The notes below the pieces were generated by a model. That model was not told the origin of the DNA. It did not search any database and saw only the letters and a list, made by a program, of their open reading frames with translations. Of a DNA stretch of 64,000 nucleotides, positions 13,405 through 55,929 are shown one piece after another (position 1 is the first letter of the stretch; every line of letters begins with the position of its first letter). This stretch comes from an uncultured Bacilli bacterium (GTDB lineage: Bacteria > Bacillota_I > Bacilli_A > RFN20 > CAG-826). Both the position numbers and the translations under genes were made by a program. Location of the stretch: positions 22,836-86,835 of the forward strand of contig CALVHN010000004.1 of assembly GCA_944327845.1 (NCBI GenBank), read 5' to 3'.

Positions 13405-15816
13405 ATGAATTTTTTTAAACAATTATTAAATCTCCCTACATTAATTATTGCTATAGTAGCACTTGTTGCTACTATAGCATTTTATATTGCTTTTCCAAAT
13501 TTAATTGGTGTTTATTCAACAGTTTTTTTAATTTTATTAATATTATTTCTTTTCCTTTTATTTGTTCCAAATTTAATTAAGGATAATGAAGGTGAAAATA
13601 AAATCTCTAAATTTACTTTTATTAATAAAATTAAGGAATATTTTTCAAATAAAGAGAATAAAATTGCTTTAGTTAGACAAATTTTTGCTCTTATTTTATT
13701 TTTCATTTTCTTAACTCGCTTCTTTTTAAATCATGATTATTTAGAAAGTGTGGTTAGTATGGAAAGCGATATTTTATCTCCTGTTGAGATTGTTTTTTCT
13801 ACATTCTTAAATCAATGGTGGATTGGATCAATTATTCTTATTTTAATAAATGAATTTGTTAAAAGTGAGATATTTGAAACGCTTGTTAAATTTATTTCTA
13901 CTCCAATTTTAATCTTATCATTTTTCTTGTTATTTTTAATTATACCAGGGATTTGCGGGGATATTTCTTTAGAAACACTAGATCCTAGAGCATATTTAAT
14001 GGGAGCAGAACTTGGAATTTCTCTTGCTTTTGTTGCCTCTATCTGGTTTAAAAATCATTCATTTAAATTAACAAAGGAGTTAGGAATATCCTTAGGACTT
14101 GGTTATTTTCTTTTAATAATTGCTAATTTTAGTGGATATATTCCTAAAATATTTTTTGGTACAAGTATTGGTGAATTACCTCTTCCTTTAGATTTAAATT
14201 GGACACATCGTGTTTATATTTATATTTTGATTTTATTACCTACTTTATATTTTGTTTTACTTTATCGATATGATTATAAACATCGTCGATATTTTTTAAC
14301 TTATATTTCAATATGTGTTTTATTTTCTTATTTATGTTTAAGAAGATACGAAATTTTTGAAAGCCCAAGAAGCTTACAATTACATCTTTGTAATTTGGCT
14401 ATGTTTATCATTCCAATTACTTTAGTATTTAAAACAACAAAAGTTTTTTACTTTACAATGTTTATTAATGTAATTGGTGCAATTCTTGCTTTCTTAATGC
14501 CAAATTATAATGAAGGTTTAGGTATATTTGATGTATCGGTTATTGAATTCTTTATTAACCATTTATATGCTGCATTTATGCCAATATTGATTGTTTTACT
14601 TGGTGTTTATGAACGACCTAAGATGAAATATTTTATTTATTCAATGGTTGGATTTTTAATTTATTATTTATTTATCTTAGTTTGGAATACATATTTTGGT
14701 ACAGACTATTTCTTTATTAATTCTAACTTTGTTGCTGATAAGCTTGGTGATTGGGCAGAAGATATCTTTAATATTGAAGCCTCATTTGAAATATTTGGAA
14801 AAACATTAACTTTTCATCCGGTTTATCAAATTATCTTCTTTGTTGTTTATGTTATCTTTGCTTTCATCATGTGGTACGTTTATGAGTTATTATTTAAAAT
14901 AGTTGATAATTTAACTTTACTTGTTGAGAAAAATAAAATTGTAAAAAAGAAAAATAATGAATTTATTTTATATTTAAAATCTGTGCGAGGTAAAAGTATG
15001 AAAGAAATTAGAAAAGAAGATTTAAAAATTGATTATGATGAGCTTGAAGCTAATTTAAAAATTGAACATTTAAATAAGCGATATGGTAATGCTAAAAAAG
15101 CAGCGGTAGAAGATTTTTCCTTAACTCTTGAAGGTGGAAAAATATATGGTTTCTTAGGTAAAAATGGTGCTGGTAAATCAACAATTATTAAATCTATTGT
15201 TGGTATGCATACTTTTAATAGCGGTAAAATTACAGTTTGTGGTTTTGATATTAATCATCAACCTGTTGAAGCTAAAAGCCTAATTGGTTTTGTTCCAGAT
15301 CATTATGCTTTATATGAAAATTTAACTGGTAGACAATATATCAATTATATTGCTGATTTATATAATGTTTCAAAAAAAGATCGTGAAGAAAGATTAAAAG
15401 ATTTATTACCTCGTCTTGAACTTGAAGATAAGATTGATAAACAAATTAAAACTTATTCTCATGGTATGAAACAAAAAATTACAATTATTGGTGCTTTAAT
15501 TCATAATCCAAAGATTTGGATTTTAGATGAACCTATGACTGGTGTTGATCCTAATTCGATTTTTCAAATTAAAGAATGTATGAGAGAACATGCTAAAAAA
15601 GGTAATATTGTTTTCTTCTCATCTCACTTAATTGATGTTGTTTCTAACTTATGTGATGAAGTTATTATGATTAAACATGGTGATTTCATTTTAAGAACTT
15701 CTCTTGAAGAATTAAAACAAAATAATGTGGATTTAGAATGGTTATTCTTAGAAAAAACCAAGGATGATGAAGATATCAAAGACAATAATCTTGAAGTAAA
15801 AGGAGCTAATAATTAA
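13405..15816 (+). CDS. YwaF/TMEM164-like integral membrane domain fused to ABC transporter ATPase
   Basis: About 510 aa multi-TM region containing LQLHLCN (C329), FFINH (H386) and TDYFFI. C-terminal NBD with Walker A GKNGAGKST, signature YSHGMKQK, Walker B IWILDE and H-loop SSH. Confidence 0.85.
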   Translation: MNFFKQLLNLPTLIIAIVALVATIAFYIAFPNLIGVYSTVFLILLILFLFLLFVPNLIKDNEGENKISKFTFINKIKEYFSNKENKIALVRQIFALILFFIFLTRFFLNHDYLESVVSMESDILSPVEIVFSTFLNQWWIGSIILILINEFVKSEIFETLVKFISTPILILSFFLLFLIIPGICGDISLETLDPRAYLMGAELGISLAFVASIWFKNHSFKLTKELGISLGLGYFLLIIANFSGYIPKIFFGTSIGELPLPLDLNWTHRVYIYILILLPTLYFVLLYRYDYKHRRYFLTYISICVLFSYLCLRRYEIFESPRSLQLHLCNLAMFIIPITLVFKTTKVFYFTMFINVIGAILAFLMPNYNEGLGIFDVSVIEFFINHLYAAFMPILIVLLGVYERPKMKYFIYSMVGFLIYYLFILVWNTYFGTDYFFINSNFVADKLGDWAEDIFNIEASFEIFGKTLTFHPVYQIIFFVVYVIFAFIMWYVYELLFKIVDNLTLLVEKNKIVKKKNNEFILYLKSVRGKSMKEIRKEDLKIDYDELEANLKIEHLNKRYGNAKKAAVEDFSLTLEGGKIYGFLGKNGAGKSTIIKSIVGMHTFNSGKITVCGFDINHQPVEAKSLIGFVPDHYALYENLTGRQYINYIADLYNVSKKDREERLKDLLPRLELEDKIDKQIKTYSHGMKQKITIIGALIHNPKIWILDEPMTGVDPNSIFQIKECMREHAKKGNIVFFSSHLIDVVSNLCDEVIMIKHGDFILRTSLEELKQNNVDLEWLFLEKTKDDEDIKDNNLEVKGANN

Positions 15817-32039: not shown

Positions 32040-33659
32040 ATGATTAAAAGTAAAGATTGGATTAAAGATTTAGTTGTTTATCAAATTTACCCAAGAAGTT
32101 TTAAAGATTCTAATAATGATGGAATCGGAGATATTAAAGGAATAATTGAAAAATTAGATTATCTTGAATATTTAGGGATAAATGCAATATGGTTATCACC
32201 AATTTATAAATCTCCAATGATTGATAATGGCTATGATATTGAAGATTATTATGCTATTAATGAAGAATTTGGAACAATGGAAGATTTTGACAATTTATTA
32301 AGCGAAGCTAAAAAAAGAAATATCATAATTATTATGGATCTTGTTTTAAATCATACATCTAATAAACATCAATGGTTTATTGAAGCTTCTAAAAGTAAGA
32401 ATAATAAATATTCTAATTATTATATCTTTAAAGATGGGAAGAATAATAAAGAACCTAATAATTGGGGTTCAACTTTTGGAGGAAGTGCTCGGACATATGT
32501 AAAAGAAAGAGATCAATACTATCTCCATCTATTTGCTAAAGAACAGCCTGATTTAAATTGGAGCAATGTTGAAGTTAGAGAAGAAATATATAAAATGATT
32601 AACTTTTGGATTGATAAGGGCGTTAAAGGATTTAGAGTCGATGCAATAAGCTATTTAGATAAAACAAAAGAAATGTTAGATGCTCCATATCCTTTAAATA
32701 ATGAAGGATATTCTCCATGCAAAGCTTTTATTGCTGGAAATGAAACAACCCATAACTATATCAAAGAATTAGGAAATATCTTTAATTCAAGAAATATTTT
32801 TTCAGTAGGAGAATGTTTTATTCAAAGTGATGAAGATTTTAAAAAATATGTATTAACTGAATCTAATGAATTTGATATGGCTATTCCTTTTATTCCACCT
32901 GTTGTAGAAATTAAAAATATTTCTCCAAATTATTTAAAAAATACTTTTAAACATCGATATGAAATATTGAAAAATGGTGGCTGGCGGGCTAATTTCTTAT
33001 CAAATCATGATAAGCCAAGACAAATTTCTTTGTATGGTAATGATTCAATTGAATCTGGTAAGATGCTAGCAACTTTACTTCATACTCTTCCTGGAACACC
33101 TTTTGTTTATCAAGGCGAAGAGATTGGAATGACAAATGTTTATTATGATAGTATTGATGAATATAACGATCTTGATACAAAAAATTATTATTCTTATTTA
33201 TTAAAATCTAATAAATCAAAGGAAGAAGCTTTAAAAGAAATTCACCTTACTTCAAGAGATAATGCTCGTTCTCCTATGCAATGGGACAATAGTGAATTTA
33301 GTGGATTTTCTAAAGTTAAACCTTGGTTAAATGTTAATCCTAATTACTTAAAGATTAATGTTAAAAGTGAATTAAATAATCCTAATTCTATTTTTAATTA
33401 TTATAAAAAGTTAATTTCTTTAAGAAAAAATAACGATATTTTAAAATATGGGGATTTAGAGTTTATCGATTCAAGTGATGGAACAATAGTTTATTTAAGA
33501 AAATATAAAGAAATTAAATGGTTAGTTGTTCTCTCTTTTTTAGATAAAGAAATTGATTTTAAAATCGATTATAAAATTAAAAAAGTTATTTTAGAAAACT
33601 ATCCATTAAAAGAAAATAAATTAGGTAGTTATCAAGCTTTAATTTTAGAAATTGAATAA
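32040..33659 (+). CDS. GH13 alpha-glucosidase / oligo-1,6-glucosidase (two in-frame CGG codons, probably Trp)
   Basis: YQIYPRSF.DSN.DG.GD, DNGYD, DLVLNHTS, QPDLNW, catalytic GFRVDA, VGE and NHD, YQGEEIGM, RDNARSPMQW. Confidence 0.95.
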   Translation: MIKSKDWIKDLVVYQIYPRSFKDSNNDGIGDIKGIIEKLDYLEYLGINAIWLSPIYKSPMIDNGYDIEDYYAINEEFGTMEDFDNLLSEAKKRNIIIIMDLVLNHTSNKHQWFIEASKSKNNKYSNYYIFKDGKNNKEPNNWGSTFGGSARTYVKERDQYYLHLFAKEQPDLNWSNVEVREEIYKMINFWIDKGVKGFRVDAISYLDKTKEMLDAPYPLNNEGYSPCKAFIAGNETTHNYIKELGNIFNSRNIFSVGECFIQSDEDFKKYVLTESNEFDMAIPFIPPVVEIKNISPNYLKNTFKHRYEILKNGGWRANFLSNHDKPRQISLYGNDSIESGKMLATLLHTLPGTPFVYQGEEIGMTNVYYDSIDEYNDLDTKNYYSYLLKSNKSKEEALKEIHLTSRDNARSPMQWDNSEFSGFSKVKPWLNVNPNYLKINVKSELNNPNSIFNYYKKLISLRKNNDILKYGDLEFIDSSDGTIVYLRKYKEIKWLVVLSFLDKEIDFKIDYKIKKVILENYPLKENKLGSYQALILEIE

Positions 33660-39508: not shown

Positions 39509-39521
39509 AAAATAATTAAGA

Positions 39522-39535
39522 TTAGCAAGGCTTTT
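39522..39535 (+). repeat. dispersed motif TTWGCAAGGHTTTT
   Basis: TTAGCAAGGCTTTT, 13 nt after the stop at 39508. Confidence 0.5.
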
Positions 39536-39565
39536 AATTATAAAATAGACAAATTTTTTAAGTTT

Positions 39566-39612
39566 AAAACAAGCGTTTTGTTGTAAAAACGCTTGTTTTT
39601 TTTTTTTTTTTT
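39566..39612 (+). terminator. intrinsic terminator with T17 tail
   Basis: 14-bp stem AAAACAAGCGTTTT/AAAACGCTTGTTTT running into 17 T (39596-39612). Confidence 0.75.
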
Positions 39613-39736
39613 CACTAAACTTAATACTTAGAAGTAAGAATTGCTTATGAATTGCCAAATTATGTTATTTGAAATAAGTCTATTAATTCGTCGATAAGAA
39701 TAATTTTCATTTATTTCATATATTTTTTAGCGAGTT

Positions 39737-39750
39737 AGTAAGCGCTTACA
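39737..39750. promoter_or_regulatory. LacI-family / cre-like operator
   Basis: Perfect 12-bp palindrome GTAAGCGCTTAC (TGTAAGCGCTTACT on the minus strand), upstream of the glycosidase operon. Confidence 0.75.
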
Positions 39751-39780
39751 TCTTACATATTATTTAGAGGAGAAAGAAAT

Positions 39781-40089
39781 ATGAAAAAACATATTGTTCG
39801 ATTTTTAGTGGCCTCAATGATGTTTAACTTTGGTTTTGTTGGAATGGTTGGATATGAATAACGCCACTCAAGAAGTAAAGCCAAAAGAAGCTACTTTAGA
39901 ATCAATTAGTGTTATAACAACTCCTACAAAAGTTACCTATAAAAAGGTGAATCTTTTAAAAGAGGTGGAATGGTTGTAAATGAAGAGCGGAATGTTAGTC
40001 AAATAGTTGATAAAAGTGAATATAGAAACTATATGGGTAATCTAAGCTCTATTAATTTAGATAATATTAACGTTGAATTTGGGGAATAA
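39781..40089 (+). pseudogene. remnant of a secreted Ig-like (Big_3-type) protein gene
   Basis: SD GAGGAG; signal peptide MKKHIVRF...; frameshift; TLESISVITTPTKVTYK; frameshift; GESFKRGGMVVN... ending 2 nt before the GH3 ATG. Apparent large internal deletion. Confidence 0.7.
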
Positions 40090-40091
40090 TT

Positions 40092-46743: not shown

Positions 46744-49700
46744 ATGACAAAAAAAGGAAAAATAATAAATTTTGCTGCAATAGGAGTTGTAGCTGCAATT
46801 GTTGTTACTCTTAATGTTTTATGTTTATCTACTTTTAGAGATCAAATTCAAACTTTTCTTATAGGTGGAGGAACAGCAAATCAAGAAACTATTACTCAAA
46901 GTAAGGAAGAAGGCGAAGCTCTTGCAGAAGATATTGTTGATGAAGGTTCAGTATTAGTTAAAAATGAAAATAATACTTTACCTTTAAGCAAACAAGCAAA
47001 TAATAAAGTTAATGTATTTGGTTGGGGTTCATCTTATTGGATTACTGGTGGAAGTGGTAGCGGACGTGTCGTTAATACCGCTGGAAACTTAAAAGCTGAA
47101 ACCGATCTTTTAAAAGCCTTAGAAAATGAAAATATTGAATACAATACAGATTTAACAGATTTTTATGTTAATTATGAAGCTAATAGACCACATTATTCAA
47201 CAAGTGAAGGAACATTAAATGCTTATGATTACGAGTATTATCGTATTATTGAGCCTTCAATGGATGAATATGGCGATAATTTATTAGCAGATGCTGAAGA
47301 GTTTTCTGATACTGCAATTGTTGTTATAGGTAGGGCAGCAGGTGAATCTAGTGATGCTCCAAAAGTTCAATATAAAGGAAATAGTACAAATTCAAGAGTT
47401 GATGATTCAACAAGACATTATTTAGAAATTTCGACCGAAGAAGAAGATTTACTTGAATATGTTGGTTCTACTTTTGAAAATGTTGTAGTAGTGATTAATT
47501 CAACAAATACTATGGAACTTGGATTTCTCGATACAATCGAAGGAATTGATTCTTGTTTAATTGTTGGTGCAACTGGTATTAATGCTGCTAGTGGTGTTGT
47601 TAATGTTTTATACGGAGATGCAAATCCTAGTGGAAAATTAACTGATACTTATGCTTATGATATGTCAACTGCTGCAAGTTATATCAATGCAGGTATAGAA
47701 GGAGAAAATTTCTATACAAATGGCAATGGATTATATCCTGCAGATGGAACAACTCAAGGTAATCTTGGACATGATGGAGTAAGATATCCTGGTGTTGCTT
47801 ATGTTGATTATCAAGAAAGTATTTATGTTGGATATAAGTGGTATGAAACTGCTAATACAGAAGGTTTTTGGGATGATGTTGATAACGAATATGGAGTAGG
47901 TTATGAAGGTGTAGTTCAATATCCTTTTGGATATGGGTTATCTTATACCGAAAACTTTTTATGGAATATAACTGATATTTCTCTTCCTTCTGGAAGTAAT
48001 TTAACAAGAGACAGTGAAATAGAAATTGAAGTTACTGTTACTAATGATGGAACAGTTGCAGGTGCTGATGTTGTTGAACTTTATTACACCGCACCTTATT
48101 ATGATGGCGAAATTGAAAAATCTAGCGTTAATCTTATAGATTTTGCAAAAACTCCAGTTCTTCAACCTGATCAATCTGTTGCATTAACTTTGTCAGTAAG
48201 TGCTTATGATATGGCAAGTTATGATTGCTACGATTTAAATGAAAATGATGCAACAACTTATGAATTAGATCAAGGTGAATATCAATTATCATTAAGAACT
48301 GATGCTCATACTATTAAAGAGGAATTAGAAGTTAATGGATTAAGTGCAGAAGAAGAACCAGTTTTAACTTACAATTTAGCTCAAACAGAAATATTTGATA
48401 CTGATCCTTACACAGAAAATAAAGTAACAAATCATTTTACTGGTGAAAATGCAACAGATGGATGTTCAATTGATGGCAATAGTGATACAACTAATGTTGA
48501 ATATTTATCACGTGCTGATTTTGAAAGAACTTTCCCTGATGAACTTAATAGTGCTCGTGCTTTAGATGATTCTCAAAAAGAATATAATTTATATACTTCA
48601 AATCATGCAAATGATTTTATTAATCCTGATGATGAGCCAGTTACATTTAATTCTGATGAAACAGAACATATGCTTTATGATCCTGCTAAAAATTATGAAA
48701 TTACTGAACTTGGCTTGGAACTTGGCAAAAATTATGATGATCCAAGATGGGATGAAGTTCTTGATCAAATGAGTCAAGATGAAATGAGAAATCTTGTTTT
48801 ACATGGATATGTTGGAACAAGACCAGTCGGTAGTGTTGGTAAACCTCAATTTACCGATGTTGATGGTCCTGCACAATTTGGTTCATTTAATCTTCCTAGA
48901 AGGGGAGTTGGCTATCCTAATGCTACAGTTTTAGCTCAAACATGGTCTAAGTCTCTTGCTTATAACTATGGTATTGCAATGGGTGAAATTGCTCGTAACC
49001 TTGGATATGATGGATGGTATGGACCTGGAATGAATTTACATCGTTCTCCTTTTGGTGGAAGAAACTATGAATATTATAGTGAAGATCCAATTTTATCTGG
49101 AATTATGGGTGCTAACTCTGTTAGAGGTGCAAAGAACCGTGGTGTTTATTCTTATTTAAAACATTTAGCTGTTTATGATCAAGAATCATATCGTGATGGT
49201 TTATATACTTGGTTAACAGAACAAGCATTTAGAGAAAACTTCCTTAAACCTTTCCAAATGACCGTTCAAGAAGGTGGAGCATCTGGAATCATGACTTCTT
49301 ATAATAGAGTTGGTGGAGTTTGGGCTGGTGGAAGCTATGCTTTACTTACTGAAGTTGTTAAAGAAGAATGGGGCTTTAAAGGTACAATTCTTACCGACTA
49401 TGCAGATCATCATTCATTTATGAATATGGACCATGCTTTAAGAGCTGGTGGAGATTTATGGATGGATGGTTTTCAAAGTAATGGTCAATTTAGATTTGAA
49501 ACTCAATCTAACACTTTCTGGCAAAATATGAGGAGAGCATCTAAGAATATTCTTTATACCGGAGTTAATGCAATTTATACTGCTGCAAATCCAGTTGGTG
49601 ATAATGAAGAATCATTTATTATTGGTGGTAGATATGTTCCTAATACTTCTTGGATGATTGCTTTCTATGTTTTAGATCCAGTTATCTTCATTGGATTAGG

Positions 49701-53910: not shown

Positions 53911-55929
53911 TTAAATATTTTGTGAAATATAGTTTTCTAAATACTCAAAAGATGTGTTTCCAATATCATAGAAAGTTGATCTAATTGCACTTTCTTGTAA
54001 GCTTGATGTTATAAATGAAACAACTAAACTTACTCTAGTATCATAAGGATCTTCTCCATCTGAAACAATAAATCCAGATCCTAAAGCTCTTAAACTTGAA
54101 TCGCTTGGATAGAAATAATTTAACATATTTGTTCCAAATGAATCAGAAGTATTTCTCCAATAATTTACTGTATCAAGAGCAGTTGCGATTTGATAATTAT
54201 CATAGTTATAAATATCATCTGTTTTATGAGAGACATAGAATAAATCATTGCTTGCACCTTGATAAGTTCCACATCCTGGAAGAGTCATTGGATTAGTACC
54301 AGTTGCATGGTCAATTGAACGATCAATATTGATTTCTGAAGGATCGGTTGAATTTTCAGGATATGTTAAATTAAATTCATAGATATGGTTATCGATTTTA
54401 ATATAACCATAATTTTGATTTTTATAATATTGGCTATAAGGTTCAACATAATAATAATCAGGAGTATAATAAACTTTAGCGTGACCATAACCAGTCATTG
54501 TATCCATTGAATAATTACCTGCTTTAAATTTCTCTAAAACAGTTTCTAATACTTCTTTATTTTGAGTAGTTGGATCTTCACCAATATTTAAATAACGATC
54601 AACTGCTTTAAAACTAATTTCATTTACATTACTGAAAGAAGCTTTAAATATTCCTTTATCATAATTTGTTGTACGATCGATTATATGGAAATTTAAATCG
54701 AATTCATGTTTTTCTAAATCGGTTATTTCTAATTCTAAACGATCGCAATATCTTGTTTCAGTATCAGTTTCAAAGAAACAAATATATGAAAGAACATATA
54801 TTAAATAAGAATCAGTAAGAATATAAGTATTTTCTTTTGTATCATCTTTATATCCAATAAAGGAAGAGAAATTTAAAGAACTCATAGGATAAGCAAAATA
54901 ATTTCCATATAAACTTTGAATTGCATTCATTTCTTCATCCATTGGAGTAGAAGTAATTTCAAGTTTATCATAATTTATTGAATCTAACGAAAATTGAGCA
55001 ACGCCATATCCTGTTTGCATTTGTCCATAAGTTGAACCTGCATTTGCTCCACTAATATTGTCATAAACAATTGCATTTTCTGTAAAATATTGGTCAAAAA
55101 TAACATCAGAATATCCACTTTGTGCACTGTCTCGATAATTAGTTGCATCAAGATGTGTTTTAAAATTATTATTAGCTAAATAAGGAGCAATAGTAGTATA
55201 AAAAGTACGATCTAAAGGATCTTTTGCACCTTTTCCTGAATCTAAATAAGATTTAATTTTAGCATTATTTGTTGAATTAATACCATAAATTGTAACTGAA
55301 ACGGCATCGTAAATATTTTCACCATAAACTGTAAGTAAACTTTCAACTTGAATAGTATTATTAACTATTTCAAATGTTAAGGATTCTGGTTGAACTAAAG
55401 GATCGGGGTTATAAGTTTTTCTTAATAAAACTTCATTTATTAATCGATCATTATTTTTATTACCTTCAACATTAAATTCGTAATGATAAAGTCCATCATT
55501 ACTTGGCGTAGTTGGTAATTTTGTATAATCAAAATCTTCAAATCCATTTCTTAGATCATAAACTGATTCATATCTCACCCCAGTTTCTTGATTAATTAAA
55601 GGAGAAGAAGATACGATTTGATCATCAACAATGTTATAAGAAAATATAAGATCACCTTTTTGAGCATAGCCATTAAAACCTAAATCTCCATCTGATTCTA
55701 AAGAATAAGGAGTGTAAAAAGTATCTTGATGTCTTTCTACTCCATTATTTGCATAATAATCATCATAAGATAATGAGAAATTATTATTAGTTAATTCTTT
55801 AAATAATGTTTGAAGTTCTCCAACTGGATCAGGCATAGTATTTTCTGTTTCTTTAGTTGCATTATCACATCCAATTAAAGTTAAAGTAATTGTTGTTAAA
55901 CTTAATAAAGTAAGAAGTTTTCTTTTCAT
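53911..55929 (-). CDS. lipoprotein with three ~210-aa repeated domains
   Basis: Lipobox LIG-C; recurring N(F/Y)(S/K)...(F/Y)(Y/F)T...G-aromatic starts and similar domain ends. Confidence 0.8.
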   Translation of the reverse strand: MKRKLLTLLSLTTITLTLIGCDNATKETENTMPDPVGELQTLFKELTNNNFSLSYDDYYANNGVERHQDTFYTPYSLESDGDLGFNGYAQKGDLIFSYNIVDDQIVSSSPLINQETGVRYESVYDLRNGFEDFDYTKLPTTPSNDGLYHYEFNVEGNKNNDRLINEVLLRKTYNPDPLVQPESLTFEIVNNTIQVESLLTVYGENIYDAVSVTIYGINSTNNAKIKSYLDSGKGAKDPLDRTFYTTIAPYLANNNFKTHLDATNYRDSAQSGYSDVIFDQYFTENAIVYDNISGANAGSTYGQMQTGYGVAQFSLDSINYDKLEITSTPMDEEMNAIQSLYGNYFAYPMSSLNFSSFIGYKDDTKENTYILTDSYLIYVLSYICFFETDTETRYCDRLELEITDLEKHEFDLNFHIIDRTTNYDKGIFKASFSNVNEISFKAVDRYLNIGEDPTTQNKEVLETVLEKFKAGNYSMDTMTGYGHAKVYYTPDYYYVEPYSQYYKNQNYGYIKIDNHIYEFNLTYPENSTDPSEINIDRSIDHATGTNPMTLPGCGTYQGASNDLFYVSHKTDDIYNYDNYQIATALDTVNYWRNTSDSFGTNMLNYFYPSDSSLRALGSGFIVSDGEDPYDTRVSLVVSFITSSLQESAIRSTFYDIGNTSFEYLENYISQNI

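Follow-up and report, generated by a model that had tools for sequence, protein, structure and literature searches.

We analysed a stretch of 64,000 nucleotides (the window, G000:C4:22836-86835) from the genome of an uncultured Bacilli bacterium, here labelled G000, in which a GH13 gene carries two CGG codons that are very probably read as tryptophan (Trp) instead of arginine (Arg). The gene (32040..33659, + strand, 539 codons) was recognised from its open reading frame (ORF), its solved relatives and 29 homologues as coding for an oligo-1,6-glucosidase/alpha-glucosidase-like product. Its top solved relative is the Bacillus cereus oligo-1,6-glucosidase 1uok (E 9.6e-156, residues 4-526), and the similarity to solved oligo-1,6-glucosidase-type alpha-glucosidases extends over the full length and includes the GSAW and NHD motif regions, the GSAW block being free of gaps.

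The first in-frame CGG, codon 151 (32490..32492, + strand, in the context 'gct cgg aca'), falls in the GSAW motif, on its near-invariant Trp. In an alignment with 29 homologues (L002-L030) from 29 related genomes this column is TGG in 27; the other two, L018 and L021, show W one column to the left, which is a local alignment slip. It is also W in all five of the solved-structure alignments among the matches listed (1uok, 2ze0, 5zcb group; all 'GSAW'). The second, codon 316 (32985..32987, + strand, 'tgg cgg gct'), lies immediately ahead of the NHD motif in a column that varies, where the homologues carry I (10), N (10), C (4), L (2), V (1), M (1) or a gap (1), and neither R nor W. The preliminary description of this DNA had placed the first CGG on a conserved Trp and regarded the second as non-diagnostic, and both statements are borne out; codon 316 would be read as Trp on the strength of the genome-wide code described below. 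The nearest GH13 homologue, at 59% identity, is that of G028, a genome from a different family of the order, and the best ones from the same genus are 40-46% identical; this gene may be a paralogue gained by horizontal transfer.

Both codons vary among strains. The likely source runs of the assembly are chicken-gut metagenomes dated 2022, and contigs about 97% identical to the gene were compared from four runs belonging to four other studies (depth 4-6). At 32490, T (giving TGG) is found in runs X6, X8 and X13, from three studies, and C is kept in X10; at 32985, T (again TGG) is found in X8, a near-identical strain, and C is kept in X6. Among the 40 of 55 strain differences listed, 26 are synonymous, 12 are conservative replacements (E/K, I/V, T/A, E/D, N/D, H/Q, V/I and N/H) and two are CGG/TGG changes. 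The latter are the sole radical ones (R/W) under translation table 11, and would be silent if CGG is Trp. A lone mutation or sequencing error, which the preliminary description had kept open for codon 151, does not fit this alternation of CGG and TGG at both sites in the strains of other studies. Among the public runs listed that contain the GH13 gene, no RNA run was found.

CGG codons in the genome

The assembly comprises 1,135,094 bases in 9 contigs (26.3-28.1% GC per contig) and is 96.85% complete. Crude gene calling (longest ORFs of at least 100 amino acids, overlaps resolved) gave 869 ORFs with 341,149 codons, among which CGG occurs 33 times (in 32 ORFs), or 0.97 times per 10,000 ORF codons. 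The corresponding counts are 2046 for TGG, 1597 for CGT, 820 for CGA, 286 for CGC, 6805 for AGA and 601 for AGG; with CGG as Trp, its 33 occurrences next to 2046 TGG amount to 1.6% of Trp codons. The scarcity of CGG in frame is real, since the window by itself, with all frames counted, contains CGG 102 times on its + strand and 57 times on its - strand.

For a genome-wide test, ORFs of at least 100 amino acids were translated with CGG masked as X and aligned to their best blastp matches in two genomes: an outgroup (G041) from another genus of the same family, used as a whole genome (0.976 Mb, 36.5% GC, with an Arg-type tRNA-CCG and a tRNA-UCG), and a congener (G006; 16 contigs used, 1.145 Mb, 27.7% GC). 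These yielded 184,794 and 226,281 aligned codon pairs, respectively. Opposite the CGG codons of G000, the outgroup has W at 7 of 16 sites and F at 3, with L, K, R, E, I and G once each; the congener has W at 12 of 20, V and I twice each, and C, K, M and T once each. TGG aligns to W in 66% of cases in both comparisons alike. The codons CGA, CGT, CGC, AGA and AGG align to R in 49-66% of cases, with a W fraction of 0.00; for CGA (n=483) the R fraction is 53% (53-55% over the comparisons) and for AGG (n=278) it is 49%. Thus CGA and AGG have kept their Arg meaning genome-wide and TGA, which terminates 69 of the 869 ORFs, is a stop, as the preliminary description had it from the window. Pooled over both relatives, 21 of the 33 CGG sites can be aligned; 14 of these (in 13 proteins) show W in one relative or both, and one has R.

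In a Codetta-like likelihood calculation built on the residue profiles observed for all the other codons, the best fit for CGG is W, with a log-likelihood (lnL) difference between W and R of +39.6 against the outgroup and +81.1 against the congener; the next-best residues, F or Y, lie 19 to 52 lnL units behind W. As a control, the 58 other testable codons were each called as in table 11 in a leave-one-out procedure (ATG and TGG are uncallable in this way, because each is the sole codon of its residue). A further control was the CGG of the outgroup itself (n=132: R 54, K 27, W 2), which the method calls Arg with a difference of -248.8. The congener has 74 in-frame CGG codons with the same Trp profile: opposite them G000 has W at 24 of 37 sites, F at 5 and R at none (lnL difference +175.9). 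The genome-wide check proposed in the preliminary description, which asked whether CGG aligns mostly to Arg columns, therefore came out in favor of Trp columns. No CGG position is common to G000 and G006 (0/20 and 0/37 aligned sites), which indicates fast codon turnover.

By their Pfam matches, the proteins that carry CGG include Der, GlpK, MalQ, an M50 (RseP-like) protease, TrmD and DnaA, as well as a flavodiiron-type protein, an ECF S component, HAD hydrolases and a P-type ATPase. Codon 296 of Der corresponds to W in the B. subtilis EngA structure, and in 45 named relatives this column is TGG in 35, Cys in 9 and CGG in 1, with none of the standard Arg codons. For Glf codon 107, four solved-structure alignments give W, W, F and F.

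Three side observations concern these proteins. In 9 of the 45 relatives of Der (loci L229-L237 and G006), a block 67-69% identical to G000, Cys (TGC or TGT) replaces the otherwise invariant Trp of the NKWD motif. In the stretch G000:C9:14571-16365, trpS (14571-15545) has directly behind it a gene for a HAD-family hydrolase, whose CGG (codon 186) aligns to a column of Trp or Phe. Outside the window, at G000:C5:10614-12484, a PRiA4_ORF3-like gene adjoins a C-5 DNA methylase gene, with one CGG in each; the pair may be recently acquired mobile DNA in the standard code.

The tRNA with anticodon CCG

Aragorn recovered 43 tRNAs from G000, including Arg tRNAs with the anticodons ACG, CCT and TCT, a Trp tRNA with CCA, and one tRNA with CCG; tRNA-UCG was not found among the 43 tRNAs of this 96.85% complete assembly. 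The tRNA-CCG, the sole reader of CGG, lies outside the window at G000:C1:352690-352764 (- strand) and was identified both by Aragorn and by the Rfam model RF00005, on which it scores 62.4 bits (gathering score 29). It is 75 nucleotides long, with a short D loop AAUCGGUA that has U20, with G73 and G1:C72, and without G3:U70. The three Arg tRNAs of G000 are 77 nucleotides long and have GGAUA, with A20, whereas tRNA-Trp(CCA) is 74 nucleotides long and has AAUGGUA, U20 and G73. Across three genomes, each of the 11 true Arg tRNAs carries A20 and is 77-78 nucleotides long, unlike the tRNA-CCG.

Shulgina and Eddy (2021; PMC8629427) give a rule by which A20 together with A73 or G73 marks an Arg tRNA and G73 without A20 a provisional Trp acceptor, an A/G1:U72 pair being supportive but not required. 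The tRNA-CCG is, as judged from its sequence, Trp-type by this rule. The preliminary description had suggested looking for exactly such a tRNA, and the one found has G73, with U20 in place of A20. G000 has one trpS gene, so that one tryptophanyl-tRNA synthetase (TrpRS) would need to accept both CCA and CCG anticodons. Overall identity does not point to a parent of the tRNA-CCG; the tRNAs closest to it share about 70% identity and belong to various types. An Aragorn tRNA-Thr(GGT) is located about 0.8 kb from the tRNA-CCG (L264, G000:C1:351205-354232); a scan of this region at the Rfam gathering score gave the tRNA-CCG only.

Distribution in the genus and order

A BLAST search of 201 genomes of the order with the 75-nucleotide tRNA-CCG found one full-length relative (in G006) and otherwise mostly T-arm matches to Arg, Lys and Val tRNAs. 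BLAST is too insensitive for tRNAs that evolve this fast, and patterns running from the anticodon to the T loop were therefore used instead. In the genus (60 species genomes), the pattern with a CCG anticodon was matched in 36 genomes and a reversed control pattern in 5. From 30 loci, 29 tRNA-CCG sequences were recovered, every one of them with U20 and G73; the bases paired at 1:72 are A:U in 22, G:U in 2 and G:C in 5. The congener G015 has two tRNA-CCG genes of different types, one of the GAGCC... type (like that of G000) and one of the AGGGGC... type, so that two lineages of the recoding tRNA coexist in the genus.

The survey of the order covered 401 genomes in 70 genera, and its results hold among the matches listed (there were 37 further matches). 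The U20-type tRNA-CCG appears there in this genus and in one genome elsewhere (G385), and the tRNA-like rows of other genera are of the Arg type, GGATAGAG or a close variant. The segment in G385 (G385:C113:1619-1661; genus g66, same family) is of the U20 type (GGTA...); it could have arisen a second time, have been transferred or belong to a genome that is misplaced. In another genus (g30), nine genomes match the pattern with 'GGAAAGCTC...TCCGAAAGGGG...GTTCAAATC', which is unlike a tRNA-CCG in look.

The record titles of the relatives read Candidatus Onthovivens or uncultured Mollicutes, Bacillales or Bacilli; Onthovivens is probably a member of the GTDB order RFN20, and both names occur in Gilroy et al. 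(2021). Two records titled uncultured Mollicutes bacterium, UMGS238 and UMGS732, have the U20-type tRNA-CCG. Bacillales bacterium UBA6877 (L228/G421; Der 71% identical) has an Arg-type tRNA-UCG, has CGG for the invariant Arg in the G2 motif of Der ('GVTRDR'), and has no tRNA-CCG among the 32 of 41 tRNAs recovered from it; its tRNA-UCG and its CGG at an invariant Arg imply that the standard reading persists nearby.

Discussion

The genome-wide residue profile of CGG, the features of the tRNA-CCG and the alternation among strains each favor CGG as Trp, and the recoded lineage suspected in the preliminary description is thereby supported. We consider it highly probable, on this sequence evidence, that G000 reads CGG as Trp instead of Arg and that it does so by the published mechanism. 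In the order of events that we infer, extreme AT pressure (26-28% GC) would first have driven CGG almost out of use. With tRNA-UCG, the reader of both CGA and CGG, apparently gone, CGU, CGC and CGA would be left to tRNA-Arg(ACG), presumably modified to ICG (i.e., with inosine), and CGG would be read solely by the dedicated tRNA-CCG. The single TrpRS would charge this tRNA and arginyl-tRNA synthetase (ArgRS) would not, as the loss of A20, the G73 and the 75-nucleotide build suggest. CGG would then return at low frequency via silent TGG-to-CGG changes.

Reassignments of sense codons in bacteria are very rare and were first reported in 2021. [quoted passage not shown] Our literature search on RFN20 and the CGG genetic code found nothing beyond this study, the main eLife text of which gives no genus name for the CGG clade. 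In its bioRxiv version, the legend to Figure 4-figure supplement 2 names species #1 as 'uncultured Mollicutes bacterium' and points to about five recoded species; the published example tRNA likewise comes from an 'uncultured Mollicutes bacterium'. The named relatives of G000 and this legend point to the same clade, and G000 is most likely a further member of it. This is, then, not a new kind of recoding; what is new here is the CGG/TGG alternation among strains, the view of Trp-type tRNAs across a genus of 60 species, and the hints of several codon states.

The likeness to the RFN20 clade is close: the same codon has the same new meaning, tRNA-UCG is missing and tRNA-ACG kept, the dedicated tRNA-CCG has G73 and no A20, and both concern uncultured Bacilli derived from the gut. 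GC is low (0.263-0.281 in G000; the criterion is 0.26-0.38) and CGG is rare (0.97 per 10,000 in G000 vs fewer than 6, the denominators being ORF codons and Pfam-aligned codons, respectively). NCBI files such genomes as 'uncultured Mollicutes' or 'Bacillales', and relatives of G000 so titled carry the same tRNA type. The differences are that about five species were published, whereas the genus here has 60 species with Trp-type tRNA-CCG in 29 of 29; that the tRNA-CCG of G000 has G1:C72 instead of A/G1:U72; and that the assembly of G000 appears later than the 2021 screen.

Four other cases can be compared. Anaerococcus shares the codon, its Trp meaning, the low GC, the Trp-like tRNA-CCG and the great rarity of CGG, but it belongs to another class (Clostridia), and no supporting conserved positions were found in it, because CGG is too rare there, whereas G000 has 14 such sites (PMC8629427). 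In Absconditabacteria (SR1), which are also low in GC, Arg-box codons were likewise captured by Trp, but there both CGA and CGG became Trp, via tRNA-UCG and tRNA-CCG, and UGA became Gly (PMC8629427); in G000 CGA stays Arg (53-55% R) and TGA stays a stop. Mycoplasma capricolum, also of an AT-rich, Bacilli-type lineage, has CGG out of use and has lost the Arg tRNA for it (Oba et al., 1991, cited in PMC8629427). CGG is unassigned there and no tRNA reads it, whereas G000 has a tRNA-CCG and has CGG at Trp sites; the state of M. capricolum is presumed to be the intermediate stage. Finally, CGG was freed in the low-GC Bacillota Peptacetobacter (CGG-to-Gln) and genus RGIG3102 (CGG-to-Ala), again with a tRNA-CCG without A20 (PMC8629427; bioRxiv 10.64898/2026.04.02.715157), but the amino acid is another one, and Q and A fit the CGG of G000 far worse than W.

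Several observations weigh against the reading of CGG as Trp. At 7 of the 21 alignable CGG sites both relatives are without W or an aromatic residue (for example, codon 338 of MgsA, K/K, and codon 211 of a TrxB-like protein, E/V), although this is the share to be expected of a Trp codon, since TGG itself aligns to W in just 66% of cases. One CGG aligns to R, at codon 45 of the C-5 DNA methylase (G000:C5:11243-12484), in a poor alignment at 34% identity. Of the 33 CGG sites, 12 cannot be aligned to either G041 or G006; four of these lie no further than codon 12 of the longest ORF, possibly ahead of the true start. Codon 285 of GlpK corresponds to Y in Enterococcus structures, though to W in both relatives, and it is an aromatic site and not a strict Trp site. 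The tRNA-CCG lacks the supportive A/G1:U72 pair, having G1:C72, and its G36 replaces the Trp identity base A36. The best-matching Trp tRNA is 0.64 identical to it and the best-matching Arg tRNA 0.73, and for the 29 tRNA-CCG copies of the genus the nearest tRNA is Gly-TCC in 10 cases, Trp-CCA in 6 and others in 13. The strain contigs have a depth of just 4 to 6, which is partly offset by the same T at 32490 in three studies; this is not a lone error.

The alternative that survives best is an ambiguous or inefficient decoding of CGG. In this case the tRNA-CCG would either receive Trp in part and Arg or some other amino acid in part, or be a poor substrate, and CGG would be close to unassigned and tolerated at a few dozen positions. 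The extreme rarity of CGG (0.097 per 1000 codons) would fit this, as would the G36 and G1:C72 of the tRNA and the 24 of 60 genomes of the genus, several of them at least 94% complete, in which no CCG anticodon was matched; that G000 and G006 share no CGG position speaks of fast turnover and not of settled use, and ambiguity of this kind is undetectable by such codon inference, according to PMC8629427. Yet the residue profile of CGG is like that of TGG (44-60% vs 66% W) with R at 0-6%, and frequent Arg would be costly at the invariant Trp positions of Der, GlpK (with the qualification made above), the RseP-like protease, TrmD and DnaA. A20, the main ArgRS element, is moreover missing in all 29 tRNA-CCG of the genus. 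We regard ambiguous decoding as quite improbable.

It is still harder to maintain that the standard code applies, with codon 151 a TGG-to-CGG missense change (Trp to Arg), in a gene that is in decay or tolerates it, and the tRNA-CCG an odd tRNA-Arg. The one diagnostic site in the window could, taken alone, be a missense change, and one CGG site in the genome does align to R; but W stands at 14 of 21 alignable sites in 13 proteins, the lnL differences (+39.6 and +81.1) favor W, the same method calls the CGG of the outgroup Arg, and true Arg tRNAs, 11 of 11 in three genomes, have A20 and 77-78 nucleotides. We give this explanation very little weight. Practically negligible is the idea that CGG represents sequencing or assembly errors, or is edited from C to U in the RNA to give UGG: TGG versions do exist, with T at 32490 and 32985 in the strain contigs of other samples, but C is kept at 32490 in X10 (a study other than the likely source) and at 32985 in X6, the 74 in-frame CGG codons of G006 have the same Trp profile, a well-formed dedicated tRNA-CCG kept in at least 29 species would be needless under errors or editing, and such C-to-U editing of mRNA is not known from bacteria.

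If CGG is Trp, translations under table 11 are wrong at all 33 in-frame CGG codons. In G000, and probably in the whole genus of 60 species, they show Arg where the cell most likely inserts Trp. The sites affected number 33 in G000 and 74 in its congener G006, and several are on conserved or invariant residues (in Der, GlpK, Glf, MalQ, the RseP-like protease, TrmD and DnaA), so annotation pipelines and structure predictions are slightly wrong at CGG sites. These results extend the known clade, and the silent CGG/TGG polymorphism within a species is a prediction of the codon-capture model. Concrete peptides are now named for a metaproteomic test in chicken-gut samples.

A further-reaching proposal, which we hold only tentatively and think rather less likely than not to be correct, is that the recoding is genus-wide (60 species genomes), still in flux and extends beyond the five-species clade, or else arose in parallel outside it. 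The two lineages of tRNA-CCG, both present in G015, the members in which no tRNA-CCG was detected and the close relative UBA6877, with its Arg-type tRNA-UCG and its CGG at an invariant Arg, point in this direction, as do the absence of conserved CGG positions between congeners and the CGG/TGG polymorphism inside one species. If this were true, a genus of the gut would display the capture of a sense codon as a natural time series, which begins with loss, passes through capture and may end in retention or reversion, and a single TrpRS would have to accept both A36 and G36.

Other features of the window

The statement in the preliminary description that the intact genes of the window contain two in-frame CGG codons stands for ORFs of at least 100 amino acids; below that length it needs amending, as two more occur in ORFs of 51 and 50 amino acids (47852-48007, - strand, and 54666-54818, + strand, respectively), which are probably not genes. 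A third CGG, near 39988, had been assigned to a pseudogene; it is intergenic, and its surroundings contain ORFs of fewer than 60 amino acids only. The same is true on both strands of the whole interval from 39509 to 40091, which lies between an ORF of 307 amino acids and one of 998.

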